A DNA stretch of 64,000 bases from Promethearchaeota archaeon (GCA_048939995.1 JBHLOY010000008.1:64001-128000), one strand, 5' to 3'. Counted from the first letter of the stretch, positions 4,258 to 12,110 are shown. The notes: generated by a model not told the origin, from the letters alone. Translations and numbers: made by a program.

Positions 4258-4692
4258 ATGAAGGGTCTTTATGAACTAGGGATAGTTTTTAGGGGATTTG
4301 TTTTAGTAAACTACACCTCTGAAATTTTTGACGAAAAAGGTGATGCCAGTCAGGGGAATAAAGATTTAAGAGGAGCATTTATTTCTGCGATAGATACCTT
4401 TGCAAAAAATGCTTTTAATAATCTTGCTTTAGAATATCTTGAATCAGATAATATTTTATTTATTTTTAAAGCTTCTGAAATTAAAACCTCTGACTATCAT
4501 GAACCGGAACCGATAATTCTCTATGGTTTGATAGATAAAAAAAAGAGAGATACAGATAAAATTGTGAAAAAATTCCTCGATAAATTTGAAATTATTTTAC
4601 AAATGTTTATCTCAAGGTTCCAAAGTAAGGATTTTACAGAATTAAGTCAATTTCATTCATTCAAAAAGGAGATTGAAAACTTTTTTATTTAA
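4258..4692 (+). CDS. Stand-alone longin-like domain protein
   Basis: Beta-beta-helix pattern (LYELGIVFRGFVLVNY...DLRGAFISAIDTFAKNAF...LEYLESDNILFIF) typical of longin domains. Confidence 0.65.
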   Translation: MKGLYELGIVFRGFVLVNYTSEIFDEKGDASQGNKDLRGAFISAIDTFAKNAFNNLALEYLESDNILFIFKASEIKTSDYHEPEPIILYGLIDKKKRDTDKIVKKFLDKFEIILQMFISRFQSKDFTELSQFHSFKKEIENFFI

Positions 4693-4697
4693 AAAGT

Positions 4698-6371
4698 CTA
4701 ATTTGATAAGTACCATCCTTTTGGATCTGACCTAGAGTATGCAATTACTCCTTGATCTTTTAATAAATCAATCTGGGTTTCTACTGTATTCTTATCATAT
4801 CCTAAAATCACAATATCTTCAACAAGTTTTGTTTTGGAGGGTATAATTCTATTCTTTTCTAGATGGTGGATAATAATTGTTCTTAAGTTTTCTTCTGTTA
4901 TCGTTCCCTGTAGTGATCTCTGATTTTTAACACTTTCTTTTTCTGTTTCTTTAGTTAAAGCATCAATTAAAGCTTCTCCTTTGGGTTTCTCAACTTCTTG
5001 TTCTATTACAATAGGTTTGATTTTTATACTTTTTTTAGGAGGAGCTCCCACTACACCTCCTAAACCTATTTTATCTTCAGGTAGAGTCCAAACAGAATAG
5101 ATAACTTTTTCAAATTTATCTTGCTTTTCTGTAATCATCCTTTCAAATTCTTCAATAACTCGATCTTTAAGATACCCTCTCTTCTTCAAATCATTAGCAA
5201 TCTCCTGAATAATCTTTTTGTCAATTAAATCTTTAAAAATAAATTCTCTAATATTTGTTGGAACAGTTTCTAATTTGAGAGTTTTTACAGGAGGCTCTAT
5301 TAGAGGTTCTTGTTGGTCAACTATATTAATATTTTGTGGTATTTCTAAAACCGGTTTCTCCCCACATTCAAAATCATTTATACATCTTATACTCCTATCA
5401 TAGCCTCCAAATATGATATTTGTCGTTCCTAGCTCAGGATCTGGCATAGTTGACACAATTTTTATTGAAGTAGAAGTAGAAGTTTTCCATTTTAACTCAA
5501 TGTCAGTTGAATTTAATTTTGTATTATGATAGATTCTTAAAGATCCATCAGCACAACCTACAAGAATTTCATTTGAGTTATCACCATCAATATCGGCGAT
5601 TTTTAAAGAAACTGGGCGGCCTTCTTCAATATTTATAACTTTTAAGCTTTCTCCTTCACTATTAAATACTGAAAGATTAGAATCATCTGTCCCGACTACT
5701 ATTTCATAGTAGCCATCATTAGTTACATCACCAACTTGAATAGCATTTATTTGTGTACCTAAAAACTTTTGCCAAACTATATCTGGTTTACCTTCACTGG
5801 ATTGAATTAATTGAAGTAATCCATTTTTCGTTCCAACTACTAAAGCATGGATAGGATGTTCTTCTTTTGGTAGTTTTAGGGATCCTAAATTGCACGCTGA
5901 TACCCATGAATCATAATATAGTATAAATTCGGGTTCTTTTGCATCTATATCCCTAAAAATTTTAAGAGTTTTATCTTCTCCACCATATATCAACTCAACA
6001 TTTCCATCTCTAGTAAAATCCCCTGCAGTGACGCATAAAACTTTTCCCTTTGTCTTAAAGTTCATTATTCCTGCTAATTTGTTAATCCCTTTAACAAATT
6101 TTACAACCAAGAAATTTCCATCACCAGCACCAACAAGAATCTCATCACATCCATCACCTGTAATGTCAACAGGATAAGTTGTTCTTACCCAACCGTCAAA
6201 ACTTATACTATCTAGTATATTTAATTCCTCATCCATTAAATATAAGGTCTTATCATGTCCACCAAATACCAAATAACACTTACCTTCACATCTTAAAGTC
6301 GAGCAAGTCAAAACCGCTTCAGGGGCTTCAAACATCCAGTTTAAATTGAATTTTTTCTTTAGGGAAGACAT
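4698..6371 (-). CDS. FG-GAP/VCBS-type beta-propeller protein (BBS2/ITFG2-like) with C-terminal winged-helix-like domain
   Basis: Repeats DITGDGCDEILVG, DFTRDGNVELIYGGED, DVTNDGYYEIVVG, DIDGDNSNEILVG; no signal peptide. Confidence 0.75.
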   Translation of the reverse strand: MSSLKKKFNLNWMFEAPEAVLTCSTLRCEGKCYLVFGGHDKTLYLMDEELNILDSISFDGWVRTTYPVDITGDGCDEILVGAGDGNFLVVKFVKGINKLAGIMNFKTKGKVLCVTAGDFTRDGNVELIYGGEDKTLKIFRDIDAKEPEFILYYDSWVSACNLGSLKLPKEEHPIHALVVGTKNGLLQLIQSSEGKPDIVWQKFLGTQINAIQVGDVTNDGYYEIVVGTDDSNLSVFNSEGESLKVINIEEGRPVSLKIADIDGDNSNEILVGCADGSLRIYHNTKLNSTDIELKWKTSTSTSIKIVSTMPDPELGTTNIIFGGYDRSIRCINDFECGEKPVLEIPQNINIVDQQEPLIEPPVKTLKLETVPTNIREFIFKDLIDKKIIQEIANDLKKRGYLKDRVIEEFERMITEKQDKFEKVIYSVWTLPEDKIGLGGVVGAPPKKSIKIKPIVIEQEVEKPKGEALIDALTKETEKESVKNQRSLQGTITEENLRTIIIHHLEKNRIIPSKTKLVEDIVILGYDKNTVETQIDLLKDQGVIAYSRSDPKGWYLSN

Positions 6372-6526
6372 TTTCTAAGTTTTTAATGATATAGATTTAA
6401 TATAGAACCATTGATAATAAATGCGTTTCTAATTTATATAATGAACGTATTTTAAATCTATTTAATGCTTTTGGTTTTAAAAAGATTATAAAAAAAATTG
6501 TATATTAAAAAAAAATAAAATAAAAA

Positions 6527-8698
6527 TTATAATCCAAGCTGAGCATCACTCGGACTATATTCACCAGTACCGTTTATTTCATAAGTTATCTCTACCATTT
6601 CTCCAGCATTTAGTAAATCTATTGTCCATTTTAAAGTATCTTGTCCAACTTCATCAGTTATTTCTGGTTTCTTACTATAAGTGCCGTATTCAAATTGATC
6701 AGGCACCTTATCCATTAAAATTAGATTTTGGAGTGGTGCTGTACCTATATTTTCAAGAATTAAAATTATTCTGTAATTTCCTAAGTCGCCAATTGGTAGA
6801 ACTTCTTTACCAATTCTAAACTTCCTTCTCAAGTGTAATGCCTCAATTATTGGTACTTCAGGCATAAATTCTAATTCTTGAGAGAGTGGATAGGTGTTCG
6901 CATTATATATGATTTGAGATTCAAATGTAGCCTCTTGAACAGGATTTATACAATGAATAGGATACTTAAAAACTAGACTTGATTCTGGCTTAAACATCTC
7001 TGTGTCAGAATTTCTTAGTTCTTTTAAACTAATTTTGAACACGCTTCCATCAAAGCTTACCGCTCCAGATGGTAAGTCAATTTCTTCTCCATCCCAAAGC
7101 ATTGTAACGTCAGATGCTTTTGGGGGTTGAAATTCATTAGTGAAGTATTGTTGTGAGATAATTAATTGATCCAAGGGAGCAGAACCGTTATTTATGACTT
7201 TCAAAGTAGCTATTACATCCTGTTCCTTATAAGTAGGTACTTGTGTAATATCATATTGCATGTCACCAGTTATACTGGCGATTTCCAAAATAACATCAGA
7301 AATATTTATTGTCCCATTCACTGCTGTCTGAAAGTCAGGCATAACTCGAAATTCAAGTTTCTTCCTAAATGCGGGATACTCTTCAGATTCGTATCGCCAC
7401 TTATTGGAGTGCCATTGTGCTCCTGCAGGAAGTAGGGGAATATCTCTAGGATCTATATCCACAAACTTTTTGGTTTCATCGTCGGGAGAATAGACATCAG
7501 CATTAAATAATTGGATAATAAACTCAGAGGGATTCTCAAAGACTAGTTTGCAATCCCAAATTTCTGGTTCTTCGTCTCTTTCAAGTGCATCTACATAGAA
7601 TTTATTTCTAGTGTAAGCATCATATTTATCTACCGCAAGACCTCCCGCGAATGATGATGATCCTTCATAAGTGACTTCTATTGGGCCACTTTTTCTTTTA
7701 GTTATGTCAGTTACCATTATAGTGCATGTAAACTTCAATAAAGCTGTCCTTTCGGGCGGTAATTTTTCAATTCTCCATACAACATTGTTACCTTCAATTT
7801 CTGCAATACCAATATTAGACTCTCTAACAACTGGATTTGAAAAGTCTTTTGGAATAGTTTTTACAACTTTTACGTTTGAAATAGCTTTTTCAAATAGACT
7901 TGACATAGCAATAGCAAACGTTACTGTATTTTCCTTATCAATTGAAATACCAAATGCTTGTAATGAAGATGCTGAAGCTACATCATACATATCCTCCTCT
8001 TCATCTTCTTCTTCCTCATCTTCTTCCTCTTCTTCATCCTCATCTTCTTCCTCTTCTACTTTCTTTATTTCAGGTTTACGCTTCTTTACACTAGAACCAG
8101 CTTTAGCAGTTTTATCTTTTAATTCAATCAAATCATTTTCAATATCTCTAAGATTTAACACATCATCAGCATTAGGAAGAGTATTAACATATTCTTTTAT
8201 TAACAAGAGATTCTTAGCCTCTCCTTTGATTAGAAAGTCTTGAGTCTCAGTATTTGTGTCTGGTTCAGTCCCTAATTCTCTTATCTTTATTTCTTTTGAT
8301 TTTAGATTTGTTGCTTCAATGTTTTTTAAACTTAAATCTATATCCCATAATCGATCTTTTTTACTAGGATTCTCTACACTGAACTTACCTTTAAAATTAA
8401 TTGACTCTATATTTCCGTCATGGTCGAGTTCAGTATTAACATCTTCCACAATTTTTACCAATGCAAGCAAACCTTCACGATTTCCAGCTTTCAATAAAAT
8501 TGATCCTTCAAGTGCTCCTGTATCAGCATCATAAGTCTCGATTACAGGAGTAGAAATATCTCTATCGACTAATCGAACTTTTCCTTCATCCATATCTGTT
8601 CTTTTTAAACCTTCAGCCACCTTTGCTTCATCTGCTTCCGTAGTATCCCAACCCATTCGAGATTCTTCTCGTTTTTTCTTATCTTTCTTTCGTGCCAT
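6527..8698 (-). CDS. Mu-homology-domain (adaptin mu C-terminal)-like protein with acidic tract and C-terminal Ig-like domains
   Basis: VEDVNTELDHDGNIESINFKGKFSV and NVKVVKTIP...NNVVWRIEKLP...GPIEVTYE...GLAV segments resemble AP mu C-terminal motifs; no signal peptide. Confidence 0.6.
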   Translation of the reverse strand: MARKKDKKKREESRMGWDTTEADEAKVAEGLKRTDMDEGKVRLVDRDISTPVIETYDADTGALEGSILLKAGNREGLLALVKIVEDVNTELDHDGNIESINFKGKFSVENPSKKDRLWDIDLSLKNIEATNLKSKEIKIRELGTEPDTNTETQDFLIKGEAKNLLLIKEYVNTLPNADDVLNLRDIENDLIELKDKTAKAGSSVKKRKPEIKKVEEEEDEDEEEEEDEEEEDEEEDMYDVASASSLQAFGISIDKENTVTFAIAMSSLFEKAISNVKVVKTIPKDFSNPVVRESNIGIAEIEGNNVVWRIEKLPPERTALLKFTCTIMVTDITKRKSGPIEVTYEGSSSFAGGLAVDKYDAYTRNKFYVDALERDEEPEIWDCKLVFENPSEFIIQLFNADVYSPDDETKKFVDIDPRDIPLLPAGAQWHSNKWRYESEEYPAFRKKLEFRVMPDFQTAVNGTINISDVILEIASITGDMQYDITQVPTYKEQDVIATLKVINNGSAPLDQLIISQQYFTNEFQPPKASDVTMLWDGEEIDLPSGAVSFDGSVFKISLKELRNSDTEMFKPESSLVFKYPIHCINPVQEATFESQIIYNANTYPLSQELEFMPEVPIIEALHLRRKFRIGKEVLPIGDLGNYRIILILENIGTAPLQNLILMDKVPDQFEYGTYSKKPEITDEVGQDTLKWTIDLLNAGEMVEITYEINGTGEYSPSDAQLGL
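7991..8057 (-). repeat. Low-complexity GAA/GAG/GAT tract encoding poly-Glu/Asp
   Basis: Encodes EEEEDEDEEEEEDEEEEDEEED within the 6527..8698 gene. Confidence 0.9.
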
Positions 8699-8842
8699 GT
8701 TAATTTTCCCTTTTTTTACATTTTTGTGATTTAATTTATTTATAGACTAATAAATATTGATTAGTAAAGTAAATATAAACACGATAGTTAAAAAAGATTT
8801 TTTCACAAAATCAAAGATTTGAATAGAAAATTTTTTTTAGTT

Positions 8843-9046
8843 CTAGAAAAGCTTTTTCTCAAACTCGTCTCCTCTATCTAGAAAAAGATCTGACTCTTTG
8901 AATTTATAGCCACACATTGGACATATGGTTACTTTTTTTCTTGTTTTTGGATTATAGGTTCTGAAAGTAAATCCACATACTGGACAAGTTCTTATCAGGT
9001 TACCACTGGCTCTTTTAATCTTAATTCCTTCTTTCTTTTTTTTCAT
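8843..9046 (-). CDS. Small zinc-ribbon protein
   Basis: CPVC...CPMC; start overlaps the glycerate kinase stop. Confidence 0.75.
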   Translation of the reverse strand: MKKKKEGIKIKRASGNLIRTCPVCGFTFRTYNPKTRKKVTICPMCGYKFKESDLFLDRGDEFEKKLF

Positions 9047-10491
9047 TTTTTTGTTTTAATATTTAATTTACTTTTAGAAAGTATTACTAATACTAAATCA
9101 TTGACGTTACTTCCGGTCAAACCAGTAATGATTTCAGAATTAAATCTTTTAAAGAACGTATTTGAGTTATTATCATTCAAATATTCTTCTAAATTGGCAT
9201 TCTGAGAATTTATTTGAACTGTTAGATTGTTGTCAATTAAAGCACCCATCGCTTTACTATTTCCTTCAATTCCATCAAGATTCACTGCTAAAAGACAATA
9301 ATTATAAGTTACATCTTCATATCTAATGAGATTTAAGTAACTAAGTAGCATTTCTTGATTTCTGCCACCAATCCCATTCCCCATAATAGTCACTGTTAAT
9401 TCACCAGTTCCTATTAAAGCAATTTTCTCATCTTTCTGGATAGCTTTAACTTCATTTGAGATGATATCATATAGTTTTCTGGCAAAAAATCTTGCTTCAC
9501 CAGCAATTTGGTTAGAAAAGTACTTACAAGCAATTCCTAATTGACTAAGGTACTTCGATATTTCCTGGACAGCAATTTCTACACTCCCTATTAAATAAGA
9601 GTACACTTTTCGAAAATAGATGTCTCCTTCCTTAGGGTTTTCTAAGTTGGAATTATTTAAACCTTCTTCGATCACTTCTTTTATCGATCGAGGTATCTTC
9701 TCTATTATCTTATATTTAGATAAAATAGTGTAAGCATCTTGATAGGTAGTACTATCTGGTATGGTAGGACCTGAGGCTATTATATCCAACTTATTACCAA
9801 TGACATCAGAAATTATTAAAGCAATTAAAGTAGCCTTACTACATTCATATACTCTTTTAGCTAAATTTCCCCCTTTAAAATTAGATATGTGTTTCCGAAT
9901 CGTGTTAATTTCATCAATTGAAGCTCCAGAAGCTAGTAATAATAAATTAATTTCCTTTAAATCTTCTATTGAAATCTTTCCTTTTGGTAAAGGTAAGAGA
10001 GCTGAACCTCCTCCAGAGATTAAACAGATAATTAAGTCCTCTTCAGAAGCTTTTTCGATCATTTTCATCATAGCTCTAGTTCCATTTAAGCCGCTTAAAT
10101 CAGGAGTAGGATGTGAGGCAAAATTTATTTTAACTTTCTTTGGAAAATCTTTCTCTTTCAAATCTAAACTAGTAGGAACATTTACTATTCCTTCATAATC
10201 TATATTTCCAAATTCTATAAGTATCTTTTCTAAGGAAAGTGCCATTTTTGCAGTTGCTTTTCCTCCACCAATTATGTATATTCTACGGTAAGCCTTTAGA
10301 TTGAATAATTTTTCATTGATTACTAGGTTATCATTATTGATTTTGATTGCTTTTTCTATTAATTTATCAGGTTTAATAGAATTGAGAGCTTTTTCTAATG
10401 CATTAAGTAAAATTTCTCTTAAAATTTTATATCTTTCTGGTAATTCTTCAGATATTATTTGATCATAATTTTTAATCAACATTCGAGTCAT
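9043..10491 (-). CDS. gck: Glycerate 2-kinase (MOFRL/DUF4147 family)
   Basis: GGGKA, ASHPTP, LISGGGSAL, SDVIG, ASGPT, GGRNQE, TGSNVND motifs. Confidence 0.92.
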   Translation of the reverse strand: MTRMLIKNYDQIISEELPERYKILREILLNALEKALNSIKPDKLIEKAIKINNDNLVINEKLFNLKAYRRIYIIGGGKATAKMALSLEKILIEFGNIDYEGIVNVPTSLDLKEKDFPKKVKINFASHPTPDLSGLNGTRAMMKMIEKASEEDLIICLISGGGSALLPLPKGKISIEDLKEINLLLLASGASIDEINTIRKHISNFKGGNLAKRVYECSKATLIALIISDVIGNKLDIIASGPTIPDSTTYQDAYTILSKYKIIEKIPRSIKEVIEEGLNNSNLENPKEGDIYFRKVYSYLIGSVEIAVQEISKYLSQLGIACKYFSNQIAGEARFFARKLYDIISNEVKAIQKDEKIALIGTGELTVTIMGNGIGGRNQEMLLSYLNLIRYEDVTYNYCLLAVNLDGIEGNSKAMGALIDNNLTVQINSQNANLEEYLNDNNSNTFFKRFNSEIITGLTGSNVNDLVLVILSKSKLNIKTKK

Positions 10492-10607
10492 ATTAATTAA
10501 AGGTCTCTAAATATTTTACACTATCACATGTTTTATTAAACTTAAAATTAGTTGCATAATTTAATTTATTATAATCTAAAAAGTTTTAAAATACTAAAAT
10601 TTAAAAA

Positions 10608-12110
10608 GTGAACTCTTACATGAGCAAAAATGAACTCTATGATATAGTAATAATAGGTGCGGGACCAGGAGGTTATCATGCAGCCGTTAGAGCAGCACAA
10701 TATGGAGCTAAAGTTGCTTTAATCGAAAAAGCAAAATTAGGAGGTACCTGTCTGAATTGGGGGTGTATTCCGACCAAAGCATTGTATGCTTCCGCGGAAT
10801 TAATTCACGAAATAAAAGAAAAAGGGGAAGGATTTGGAATTTCTTGTGACCCTAAATTAGATTTTGCCAAGGCTGTTGAAAGAAAAAATAAAGTAGTTCA
10901 GGAGTTGGTAGAAGGAATAGCAGGATTGGAAAAGGCATGGAAAAATGACGTTTATAATGGTTATGGAAAAATAATTGGAGGAAATGCAGACTCTGGTTTT
11001 GAAATATCAATAGAAGGGACTGAAAACAATATTATTAAAGCAAAAAGGGTGATCATTGCAACGGGGTCATCTCCTGCAATAATTCCAGCTTTTAATATTG
11101 ATCATGATAGGATTCTCACTAGTGATGATATTCTTCATCCAGATTTTAAAATTGTTCCTAAGCGATTACTAATCATTGGGGCAGGAGTTATAGGCTGTGA
11201 ATTCGCAAATATATTTTCTACTTTTGGCTCAAAGGTGGAAATTTTAGAATACCTTTCATCTCCAATTGCTACAGAAGAACCTATGATTATAAAAGAATTA
11301 CAGAAGAAATTTTCTAGCCTTGGTATAAAATTAAACGTTTCTCAGAATGTGTTATCAGTTGAAAATACAGGTACAGGAGTAAAAGCAACTACATGTTCAG
11401 CAGACGTTCCGAGAGATCAAATTGAAAGTGCTGAAAAGTTTTATTTTGAAGCAGACTATTGTTTAGTATCAATAGGTCGAGCTAGAATGTCTCAAAATTT
11501 AGGACTTGAAAATCTTGGAATTCAAACTCAACGGGGGGCAATCACAATCGATACTAAAACGACTGAAACGACTATAAAGGGAATTTATGCTATTGGAGAT
11601 GTAGCGGCGTCAGGTGCTCCAATGTTAGCCCATGTAGCTAGTTATATGGGAGATGTAGCAGTTGCAAATGTACTCGCAAGTATCGGGGGTTTCCCCATTA
11701 AAGGAAGAACAACGGACTATAATGTAATTCCAGCAACTATATTTACTAATCCTAATATCGGTTCGGTAGGATTAAGAAGAAACCAAGCAAAAACTTTGGG
11801 AATCGATACAGCAATGGGGAGATTTGCTTATACCTCATTAGGGAAAGCCAAGTGTGCAGGTCATGAGGAAGGATTTCTCATGATATTAGCAGATGATAAA
11901 AGCCATAAAATTGTTGGCGCTTCTTGTATTGGAGCAGAAGCTCCTGAACTTATTGCTGAAATTGCTTTAGCTATGCAACATGGATTAACGGTTCATGACA
12001 TTGGGGATGTGATCCATAGTCACCCTACGATTTCAGAGATGGTATTAGAAGCTTCTGAAGATGTATTTGGGATGGCTATTCATAAGAAGGGGAGACCTGT
12101 TTTCCATTAG
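10608..12110 (+). CDS. lpdA: Dihydrolipoamide dehydrogenase (likely start ATG 10620)
   Basis: GAGPGG, GGTCLNWGCIPTK redox disulfide, GAGVIG, HSHPTISE. Confidence 0.93.
   Translation: MNSYMSKNELYDIVIIGAGPGGYHAAVRAAQYGAKVALIEKAKLGGTCLNWGCIPTKALYASAELIHEIKEKGEGFGISCDPKLDFAKAVERKNKVVQELVEGIAGLEKAWKNDVYNGYGKIIGGNADSGFEISIEGTENNIIKAKRVIIATGSSPAIIPAFNIDHDRILTSDDILHPDFKIVPKRLLIIGAGVIGCEFANIFSTFGSKVEILEYLSSPIATEEPMIIKELQKKFSSLGIKLNVSQNVLSVENTGTGVKATTCSADVPRDQIESAEKFYFEADYCLVSIGRARMSQNLGLENLGIQTQRGAITIDTKTTETTIKGIYAIGDVAASGAPMLAHVASYMGDVAVANVLASIGGFPIKGRTTDYNVIPATIFTNPNIGSVGLRRNQAKTLGIDTAMGRFAYTSLGKAKCAGHEEGFLMILADDKSHKIVGASCIGAEAPELIAEIALAMQHGLTVHDIGDVIHSHPTISEMVLEASEDVFGMAIHKKGRPVFH

Follow-up and report, generated by a model that had tools for sequence, protein, structure and literature searches.

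Genomes of Asgard archaea contain many single domains that resemble parts of the eukaryotic trafficking machinery, mostly in scattered positions. Where several such domains are encoded next to each other, the question is whether the genes belong together or are only neighbors. This question is raised by a locus at positions 4258 to 8698 of a 64,000-nucleotide stretch of the genome of a Promethearchaeota archaeon (GCA_048939995.1, JBHLOY010000008.1:64001-128000), which is termed the window below. A preliminary description of the window, made from its sequence alone, proposed that three genes at this locus, encoding a longin, a beta-propeller, and a mu-homology protein, may specify parts of one proto-adaptor or coat complex. 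The three genes, each an open reading frame (ORF), are:

4258..4692, plus strand: P0001, an ORF of 144 amino acids (aa) encoding a stand-alone protein of the longin fold
4698..6371, minus strand: P0002, an ORF of 557 aa encoding an FG-GAP-type beta-propeller with a C-terminal tail
6527..8698, minus strand: P0003, an ORF of 723 aa encoding a mu-homology domain and two Ig-like domains

The interpretation favored here, with a probability of roughly one in two, is that the locus consists of a conserved two-gene module, made up of P0003 and P0002, plus an unrelated longin neighbor. All three ORFs are intact, with translations free of stops, in a window of low G+C content (about 0.30). As the preliminary description had it, P0003 and P0002 are adjacent and co-oriented, with a gap of 155 nucleotides between them, and P0001 converges on P0002 with only the five bases 4693-4697 separating their stop codons. 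The three folds that it named are also recovered, by Pfam matches and by structural matches to predicted models, the longin fold of P0001 by its model only and with no Pfam match.

The pairing of the mu-homology and propeller genes is found well beyond the window. Each of the 20 loci from the window's genus, the window's own included, has the two genes in tandem, and the arrangement is therefore not a chance occurrence in a single genome. Elsewhere in the window's family (f1), all seven loci of other genera with a gene of the P0003 kind also have the propeller (five in genus g12 and one each in g15 and g18), and in genus g17 the two genes lie side by side on contig C505 of genome G195. Two further families of the same order, f2 and f3, are represented by 12 genomes. 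The pair is adjacent, or has one gene between its members, in seven of these (G037, G034, G030, G040, G039, G032, and G026); in G038 the two genes are 5.5 kilobases (kb) apart with five genes between them, and in G025 a contig end prevents linkage from being judged. The genes flanking the pair in f2 and f3 are unlike those of f1. In a fourth family of the order, f4, mu-homology relatives are present and propeller matches are weak only. The part of the original neighborhood that is conserved is thus the mu-homology/propeller pair, across three families, and not the longin, which is unlinked outside f1: its relatives in f2, f3, and f4 lie on other contigs.

The two genes are also lost or gained as a block. 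In genera g13 and g14 and in genome G174 (genus g16), 5 of 5 loci keep the flanking genes without both module genes. At each of them the longin adjoins homologues of the window genes at 9043-10491 or 10608-12110, and the module is precisely missing. No propeller orthologue is found in these genomes (best expect value, E, of 1e-17 to 1e-28, or nothing at a cut-off of 1e-15), compared to matches at E 1e-119 or better in genomes with the module, and they have only another kind of mu-homology gene, or none. The P0001 orthologue is retained in all five cases, at 43–52% identity. This means that the genes of the pair come and go together, and it suggests that the longin does not depend on them.

Of 201 genomes from the phylum, 172 contain the mu-homology family as a whole at E up to 1e-10, and P0003 represents a longer sub-type, mainly present in its own order, which features an N-terminal extension and an acidic loop. 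At the 28 mu-homology loci fetched from outside the order, the nearest 7 kb or so contain neither a propeller gene nor a P0001-like gene. A tree of 57 mu-homology proteins places all 16 propeller-linked rows in a single clade of 23 rows, with a support of 100 in the Shimodaira–Hasegawa-like approximate likelihood ratio test (SH-aLRT), and the remaining 34 rows all lack a link to a propeller.

Several observations weigh against a functional module. Within f2 and f3, three of the 12 genomes (G028, G035, and G036, all of f2) have the propeller without a mu-homology gene beside it. In these families the pair is convergent, so that its genes cannot share a transcript and their adjacency says less about coupling than an operon would. 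Synteny within the window's family is broad and includes metabolic genes, and adjacency within the family alone therefore says little. In genome G169 (L101:1-8163), the propeller gene lies next to a gene for a 1936-aa CARDB/Ig-domain protein, cut by the start of the contig, instead of a mu-homology gene. The likeness of P0002 to BBS2 and ITFG2 consists of short repeated stretches and may be generic to FG-GAP blades. The mu-homology domain of P0003 is acidic, with an isoelectric point (pI) of 4.6–4.8, compared to the eukaryotic TML domain, whose positively charged patches bind anionic lipids (PMC7909872). Finally, the longin is the neighbor of the propeller in most loci of the window's genus and in the other module-bearing loci of its family, where the outer genes vary, and a facultative role of the longin with the module is conceivable.

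The exceptions in f2 and f3, the convergent orientation there, the five genes intervening in G038, the broad synteny within the family, and the 28 unlinked loci outside the order are also what could be expected if P0003 and P0002 acted separately and were neighbors by descent only, in an ancestral gene order that decays slowly. Such a history is considered unlikely. The adjacency outlasts both an inversion and the complete turnover of the flanks between families, both genes are jointly absent from g13, g14, and G174 with the flanks retained, and the linked copies are confined to a single mu-homology clade.

The position of the longin bears on the proposal of the preliminary description, in which a single proto-adaptor or proto-coat complex would have the longin, propeller, and mu-homology proteins as its three subunits. 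In 22 of the 25 genus genomes, the orthologue of P0001 directly adjoins the propeller gene; it is not found in G001, G003, or G022, and the propeller match in G022 starts 487 bases from the start of the contig. All seven module-bearing loci of g12, g15, and g18 show this triple layout too, and G169 has propeller and longin side by side, with two P0001-like copies following the propeller gene. In addition, all three folds co-occur in TSET/TPLATE and COPI, according to a published account of these complexes (PMC7909872). However, the longin orthologue stays in 5 of 5 loci from which the other two genes are missing, and it is unlinked in f2, f3, and f4. Fusion and profile searches found no protein that joins the longin family to a mu-homology or propeller partner. 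Moreover, eukaryotic adaptor longins bind large solenoid subunits, whereas this genome gave no match to the sigma-like family PF01217 (nor did any of 14 control genomes) and, for Adaptin_N (PF01602), only weak HEAT-like stretches of 17–29 bits each, in a family that also matches three of the controls (Bacillus subtilis and two methanogens). A three-subunit complex is therefore quite unlikely. What survives of the proposal is the mu-homology/propeller neighborhood, which persists between families; the longin, kept at every block-less locus, does not fit it.

The protein of the module that most resembles a eukaryotic adaptor part is P0003. Its AlphaFold2 model, built from 21 sequences, has a predicted local distance difference test score (pLDDT) of 80.9 and a predicted template modeling score (pTM) of 0.64. 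The following parts are distinguished:

7295..8479, minus strand: complete mu-homology domain, a two-lobed beta-sandwich (residues 74-468, in the predicted model)
7967..8092, minus strand: acidic disordered loop inside the mu-homology domain (residues 203-244, pLDDT below 50)
6830..7282, minus strand: second domain, a beta-sandwich of the CnaB/pilin/cohesin-like kind (residues 473-623)
6554..6820, minus strand: third domain, a DUF11-type Ig-like sandwich (residues 627-715, strands in the model)

At the level of sequence, P0003 matches the Pfam family Adap_comp_sub (PF00928) with 33.2 bits at a cut-off of 31.6, over residues 255-363 and profile positions 123-237 of 259. A profile of the P0003 family (21 members), compared with the sequences of solved structures in the PDB, finds AP-2 mu in the 17 best of 19 matches, at E of about 0.016–0.03 only. 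The signal in the sequence is thus weak yet specific. In a VIA-align comparison with 48,161 chains, residues 74-468 of the predicted model match AP-2 mu2 (9fiw_M) with a Z score of 16.0 and a root mean square deviation (rmsd) of 3.5 over 228 of 252 residues. Other matches of the same region are mu4 (Z 14.9), mu3A (14.8), delta-COP (14.1), mu1 (13.8), SGIP1 (13.4), and Syp1 (11.7). Foldseek matches P0003 to mu2 5wrk_A with E 1.8e-7 and a template modeling score (TM-score) of 0.66 on the target. The stretch at residues 203-246, which includes the loop, contains 24 aspartate or glutamate residues and 6 lysine or arginine residues. Residues 1-73 are mostly disordered in the model, with a few short strands and without a longin; pLDDT is below 50 at residues 1-22 and 34-37. 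The second domain resembles the pilin proteins BcpA (Z 14.1), RrgB (13.8), and SpaD (13.7), and cohesins (about 11). For the third, residues 648-674 match the DUF11-type repeat TIGR01451 below its cut-off, and the protein as a whole matches Pfam DUF11 with 35.5 bits. A fusion search found no longer fused relatives of P0003, which is weak evidence.

The resemblance of the second and third domains to CnaB/pilin and DUF11 sandwiches, together with the FG-GAP repeats of P0002, recalls a split integrin alpha chain with an FG-GAP head and Ig-like legs, and whole-model Foldseek searches do return integrin alpha ectodomains, pilins, and adhesins at E of about 1e-8 to 1e-9. The pair might in that case be a surface or adhesion module, exported by an unrecognized route. 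These matches, however, have TM-scores of 0.1–0.2 and rmsd above 25, while for residues 74-468 the match, at Z 16, is specifically to the two-lobed fold of mu-homology domains. The gene order is sandwich then propeller, not propeller first. Neither P0002 nor P0003 has a signal peptide or a transmembrane segment, and their N-termini are charged. The maximum Kyte-Doolittle value in a 19-residue window is 1.50 for P0003 (pI 4.5) and 1.28 for P0002, and by this measure none of the three proteins, P0001 included, has a hydrophobic segment, which suggests that P0003 and P0002 are cytosolic. A role in adhesion is thus highly improbable, and the best explanation of P0003 is that it is a cytosolic scaffold protein.

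P0002, the partner of P0003 in the module, is divided into two regions:

5352..6314, minus strand: propeller region (about residues 20-340, from Pfam matches at 29-332 and invariant alignment columns)
4701..5339, minus strand: C-terminal tail (residues 345-557)

The protein matches the Pfam families Beta-prop_BBS7 (78.8 bits), BBS2_Mid (50.2 bits), and Itfg2 (48.4 bits), each at a cut-off of 27, as well as FG-GAP_3 (44.9 bits). Compared with PDB sequences, the P0002 family profile finds BBS2 at E 6.6e-12 and ITFG2 at 2.6e-11, and the next unrelated chain at 2.7e-5. Because the matches to BBS2 and ITFG2 are short, blade-level stretches, P0002 is termed BBS/ITFG2-like and not an orthologue of either. 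The sole Pfam match of the tail is a weak one to MCM5_C (E 0.039), and its sequence is possibly winged-helix-like. It has no usable match in the protein-language-model atlas, and a sequence comparison of residues 345-557 with Pfam at E up to 5 finds none of the coiled-coil, GAE, platform, or helical modules of BBS proteins. The tail is conserved in orthologues from family f2, in which matches span query residues 15-556.

P0001, the longin neighbor, can be recognized by its model. It matches no Pfam or NCBIfam family at that family's cut-off (E up to 1), and its sequence profile finds nothing below E 0.18 among solved structures. The AlphaFold2 model, built from 26 sequences, has a pLDDT of 83.7 and a pTM of 0.80, with the element order beta-beta-alpha-beta-beta-beta-alpha-alpha and the alpha-beta-alpha sandwich of a longin. 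Among solved structures it is most similar to 8yqg_B, the longin domain of a Lokiarchaeal Roadblock-Longin protein, with Z 13.4 and rmsd 2.8 over 129 aligned residues. In the exhaustive aligner this match is followed by CPLANE, Mon1-Ccz1, TRAPP, VAMP7, AP-5 sigma, and Sec22. The top 17 structural matches are all longin-domain chains, with Z of 10.6–13.4, and span residues 1-144; the best Foldseek match is the Mon1-Ccz1 longin (E 1e-3). On this predicted structure, P0001 is a true longin-fold protein.

The P0001 family is small: at E up to 0.001 it comprises 311 representative clusters, most of them with a length of about 150 aa. Paralogues occur in the same genome, and their neighbors are housekeeping genes. 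A fusion search found no longer fused relatives of P0001, which is weak evidence, and among 1.84 billion representatives searched with the family profile there are a few longer members, which contain TIR or TPR plus PRTase-CE parts and carry neither a mu-homology domain nor a propeller. Two such fused members are P0234 and P0184, in which the longin is joined to TIR (445 aa) or to TPR and PRTase-CE (683 aa); domain combinations of this sort are characteristic of conflict or signaling systems. P0001, P0002, and P0003 themselves have no match in a library of defense systems. Other proteins, from other families, begin with a P0001-like longin domain, namely a tandem pair of 560 and 593 aa (L049:4735-6417 and 6745-8526, both on the minus strand) and a 269-aa protein (L047:5314-6123, plus strand). 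These starts match the P0001 family profile at E 7.6e-15 to 8.2e-13, and the remainder of each protein has no Pfam match; in length and layout they are reminiscent of longin-DENN proteins. In g14, which lacks the module, the P0001 orthologue and a gene of 334 aa are arranged back to back (L096:7701-9352 and L097:7631-9284), and in L096 the latter encodes a Ras/Arf/RagA-like small GTPase.

If P0003 and P0002 form a two-gene module, their products would act jointly, most probably within a soluble heteromeric complex. By analogy with eukaryotes, short peptide motifs or another partner may be bound by the mu-homology domain, and a second surface, for docking or oligomerization, would come from the propeller. 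P0001 would stand beside the module only through the chromosomal position of the module in this family, and it probably acts with another longin or roadblock protein or with a small GTPase, as longins usually do. A bolder view is that the pair, a mu-homology scaffold with a BBS/ITFG2-like propeller, makes up a membrane or cargo adaptor complex of archaea, a minimal two-subunit relative of the ancestors of AP, COPI, TSET, and the BBSome, to which the longin and a small zinc-ribbon protein encoded upstream of P0003 were added as lineage-specific accessory subunits. This view is regarded as very doubtful.

The folds of the pair can be compared with known eukaryotic complexes. The mu subunits of AP-1 to AP-4, delta-COP, the muniscins (FCHo, Syp1, SGIP1), and TML show a whole-domain fold match to P0003, at Z 11.7–16.0 with 209–230 residues aligned. 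The mu subunits, delta-COP, and TML have a longin on the same chain, whereas P0003 is without one. Compared to the eukaryotic mu-homology proteins, P0003 has two extra C-terminal Ig-like domains, a 42-residue acidic loop, and an overall acidic surface. BBS2 and BBS7 of the BBSome and ITFG2 of KICSTOR are FG-GAP-like propellers of cytosolic complexes. They represent the best Pfam families of P0002, with BBS2 and ITFG2 its best solved relatives, but P0002 appears to differ from them after the propeller, where it has its own tail with no Pfam match to BBS modules. The Lokiarchaeal Roadblock-Longin protein (PDB 8yqg) provides the longin domain closest to the P0001 model, but P0001 differs from it as a stand-alone domain in its own small sequence family, with no adjoining GTPase gene in the window. 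TSET/TPLATE shares the three folds, with longin subunits, a mu-homology domain, and beta-propeller proteins (PMC7909872). In this complex, however, the longin and mu-homology domains are on one chain, the propellers carry alpha-solenoids, and the core has two large solenoid subunits, none of which is seen at this locus.

The individual parts of the pair have been described before. It has been reported that all adaptor domains have Asgard homologues, which are sparse and unfused, and that the C-terminal domain of the mu subunit occurs in Asgard archaea without fusion to other adaptor domains (Eme et al. 2023, Nature 618:992, PMC10307638). Supplementary Table 3 of that paper gives 44 occurrences of PF00928 as candidate eukaryotic signature proteins. 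These have the same Pfam family call as P0003, and the first entry, from Jordarchaeia, shows the conserved blocks of P0003 by eye. The paper lists proteins, and a propeller neighbor is unmentioned in the passages and table rows compared. A BBS7/ITFG2 cluster is among the Asgard signature proteins catalogued in a 2026 preprint (10.64898/2026.10.28.762692). With respect to gene order, Liu et al. (bioRxiv 10.1101/2020.10.19.343400) state that most eukaryote-like trafficking genes in Asgard archaea are not in conserved neighborhoods, and they name the ESCRT cluster and an operon of LAMTOR1-like, Rab-like GTPase, and DENN genes. Literature searches found no description of an archaeal neighborhood of mu-homology and propeller genes. 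The parts are thus known, the mu-homology family since 2023 and the BBS7/ITFG2-like family as catalogued, and the pairing of the genes appears to be unpublished.

Two further features lie close to the module:

6372..6526, no strand: AT-rich spacer between P0003 and P0002, with T-runs after the upstream stop codon and TATA-like stretches before the propeller start
8843..9046, minus strand: zinc-ribbon ORF of 67 aa, directly upstream of P0003, with two CPxCG motifs

The zinc-ribbon ORF has only generic zinc-ribbon matches in Pfam, all below cut-off. In tblastn searches it is found at the same position in 27 loci of genera g1 and g12 (all 20 genus loci, L001-L020, together with L035, L036, and five g12 loci) and is not found in g15, g18, or family f2. 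Its product is possibly a fourth local member. The ORFs surrounding the locus appear metabolic, as judged by eye from their translations.

Relatives of the module genes occur in varied settings. Outside the order, the mu-homology gene is usually single-copy and about 600 aa in length, and at many of the 28 loci, from several families, a gene for a metallo-beta-lactamase-fold protein of the Lactamase_B_3 type lies beside it (L060, L063, L064, L071, L075, and L092, around positions 6300-9800). At related loci, the other genes next to the mu-homology gene are metabolic or of various kinds, with no conservation. A mu-homology paralogue in G008 is located between CheA-like and CheC/CheW-like chemotaxis genes (L033:3600-10625). 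In G002 the mu-homology gene is read in two overlapping frames (L020, G002:C126:8628-10774), with matches at 8628-9278 and 9266-10774, likely because of a frameshift or an assembly error. The propeller gene of G035 converges on a gene for a 738-aa protein (L054:998-3214, plus strand), which by eye looks TPR-like and whose last 120 residues or so, likewise by eye, look like a domain of the roadblock/longin type. Three f2 loci have a small helical ORF between the genes of the pair, which is unrelated to P0001; small ORFs between the pair genes in L080 and L101 look spurious.

For the biology of Asgard archaea, the locus carries a caution, in that a longin encoded next to adaptor-like genes need not be a subunit of their product. 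A mu-homology and propeller pair that recurs across an order offers concrete proteins to express, purify, and image, and it makes testable whether any adaptor-like complex predated eukaryotes.

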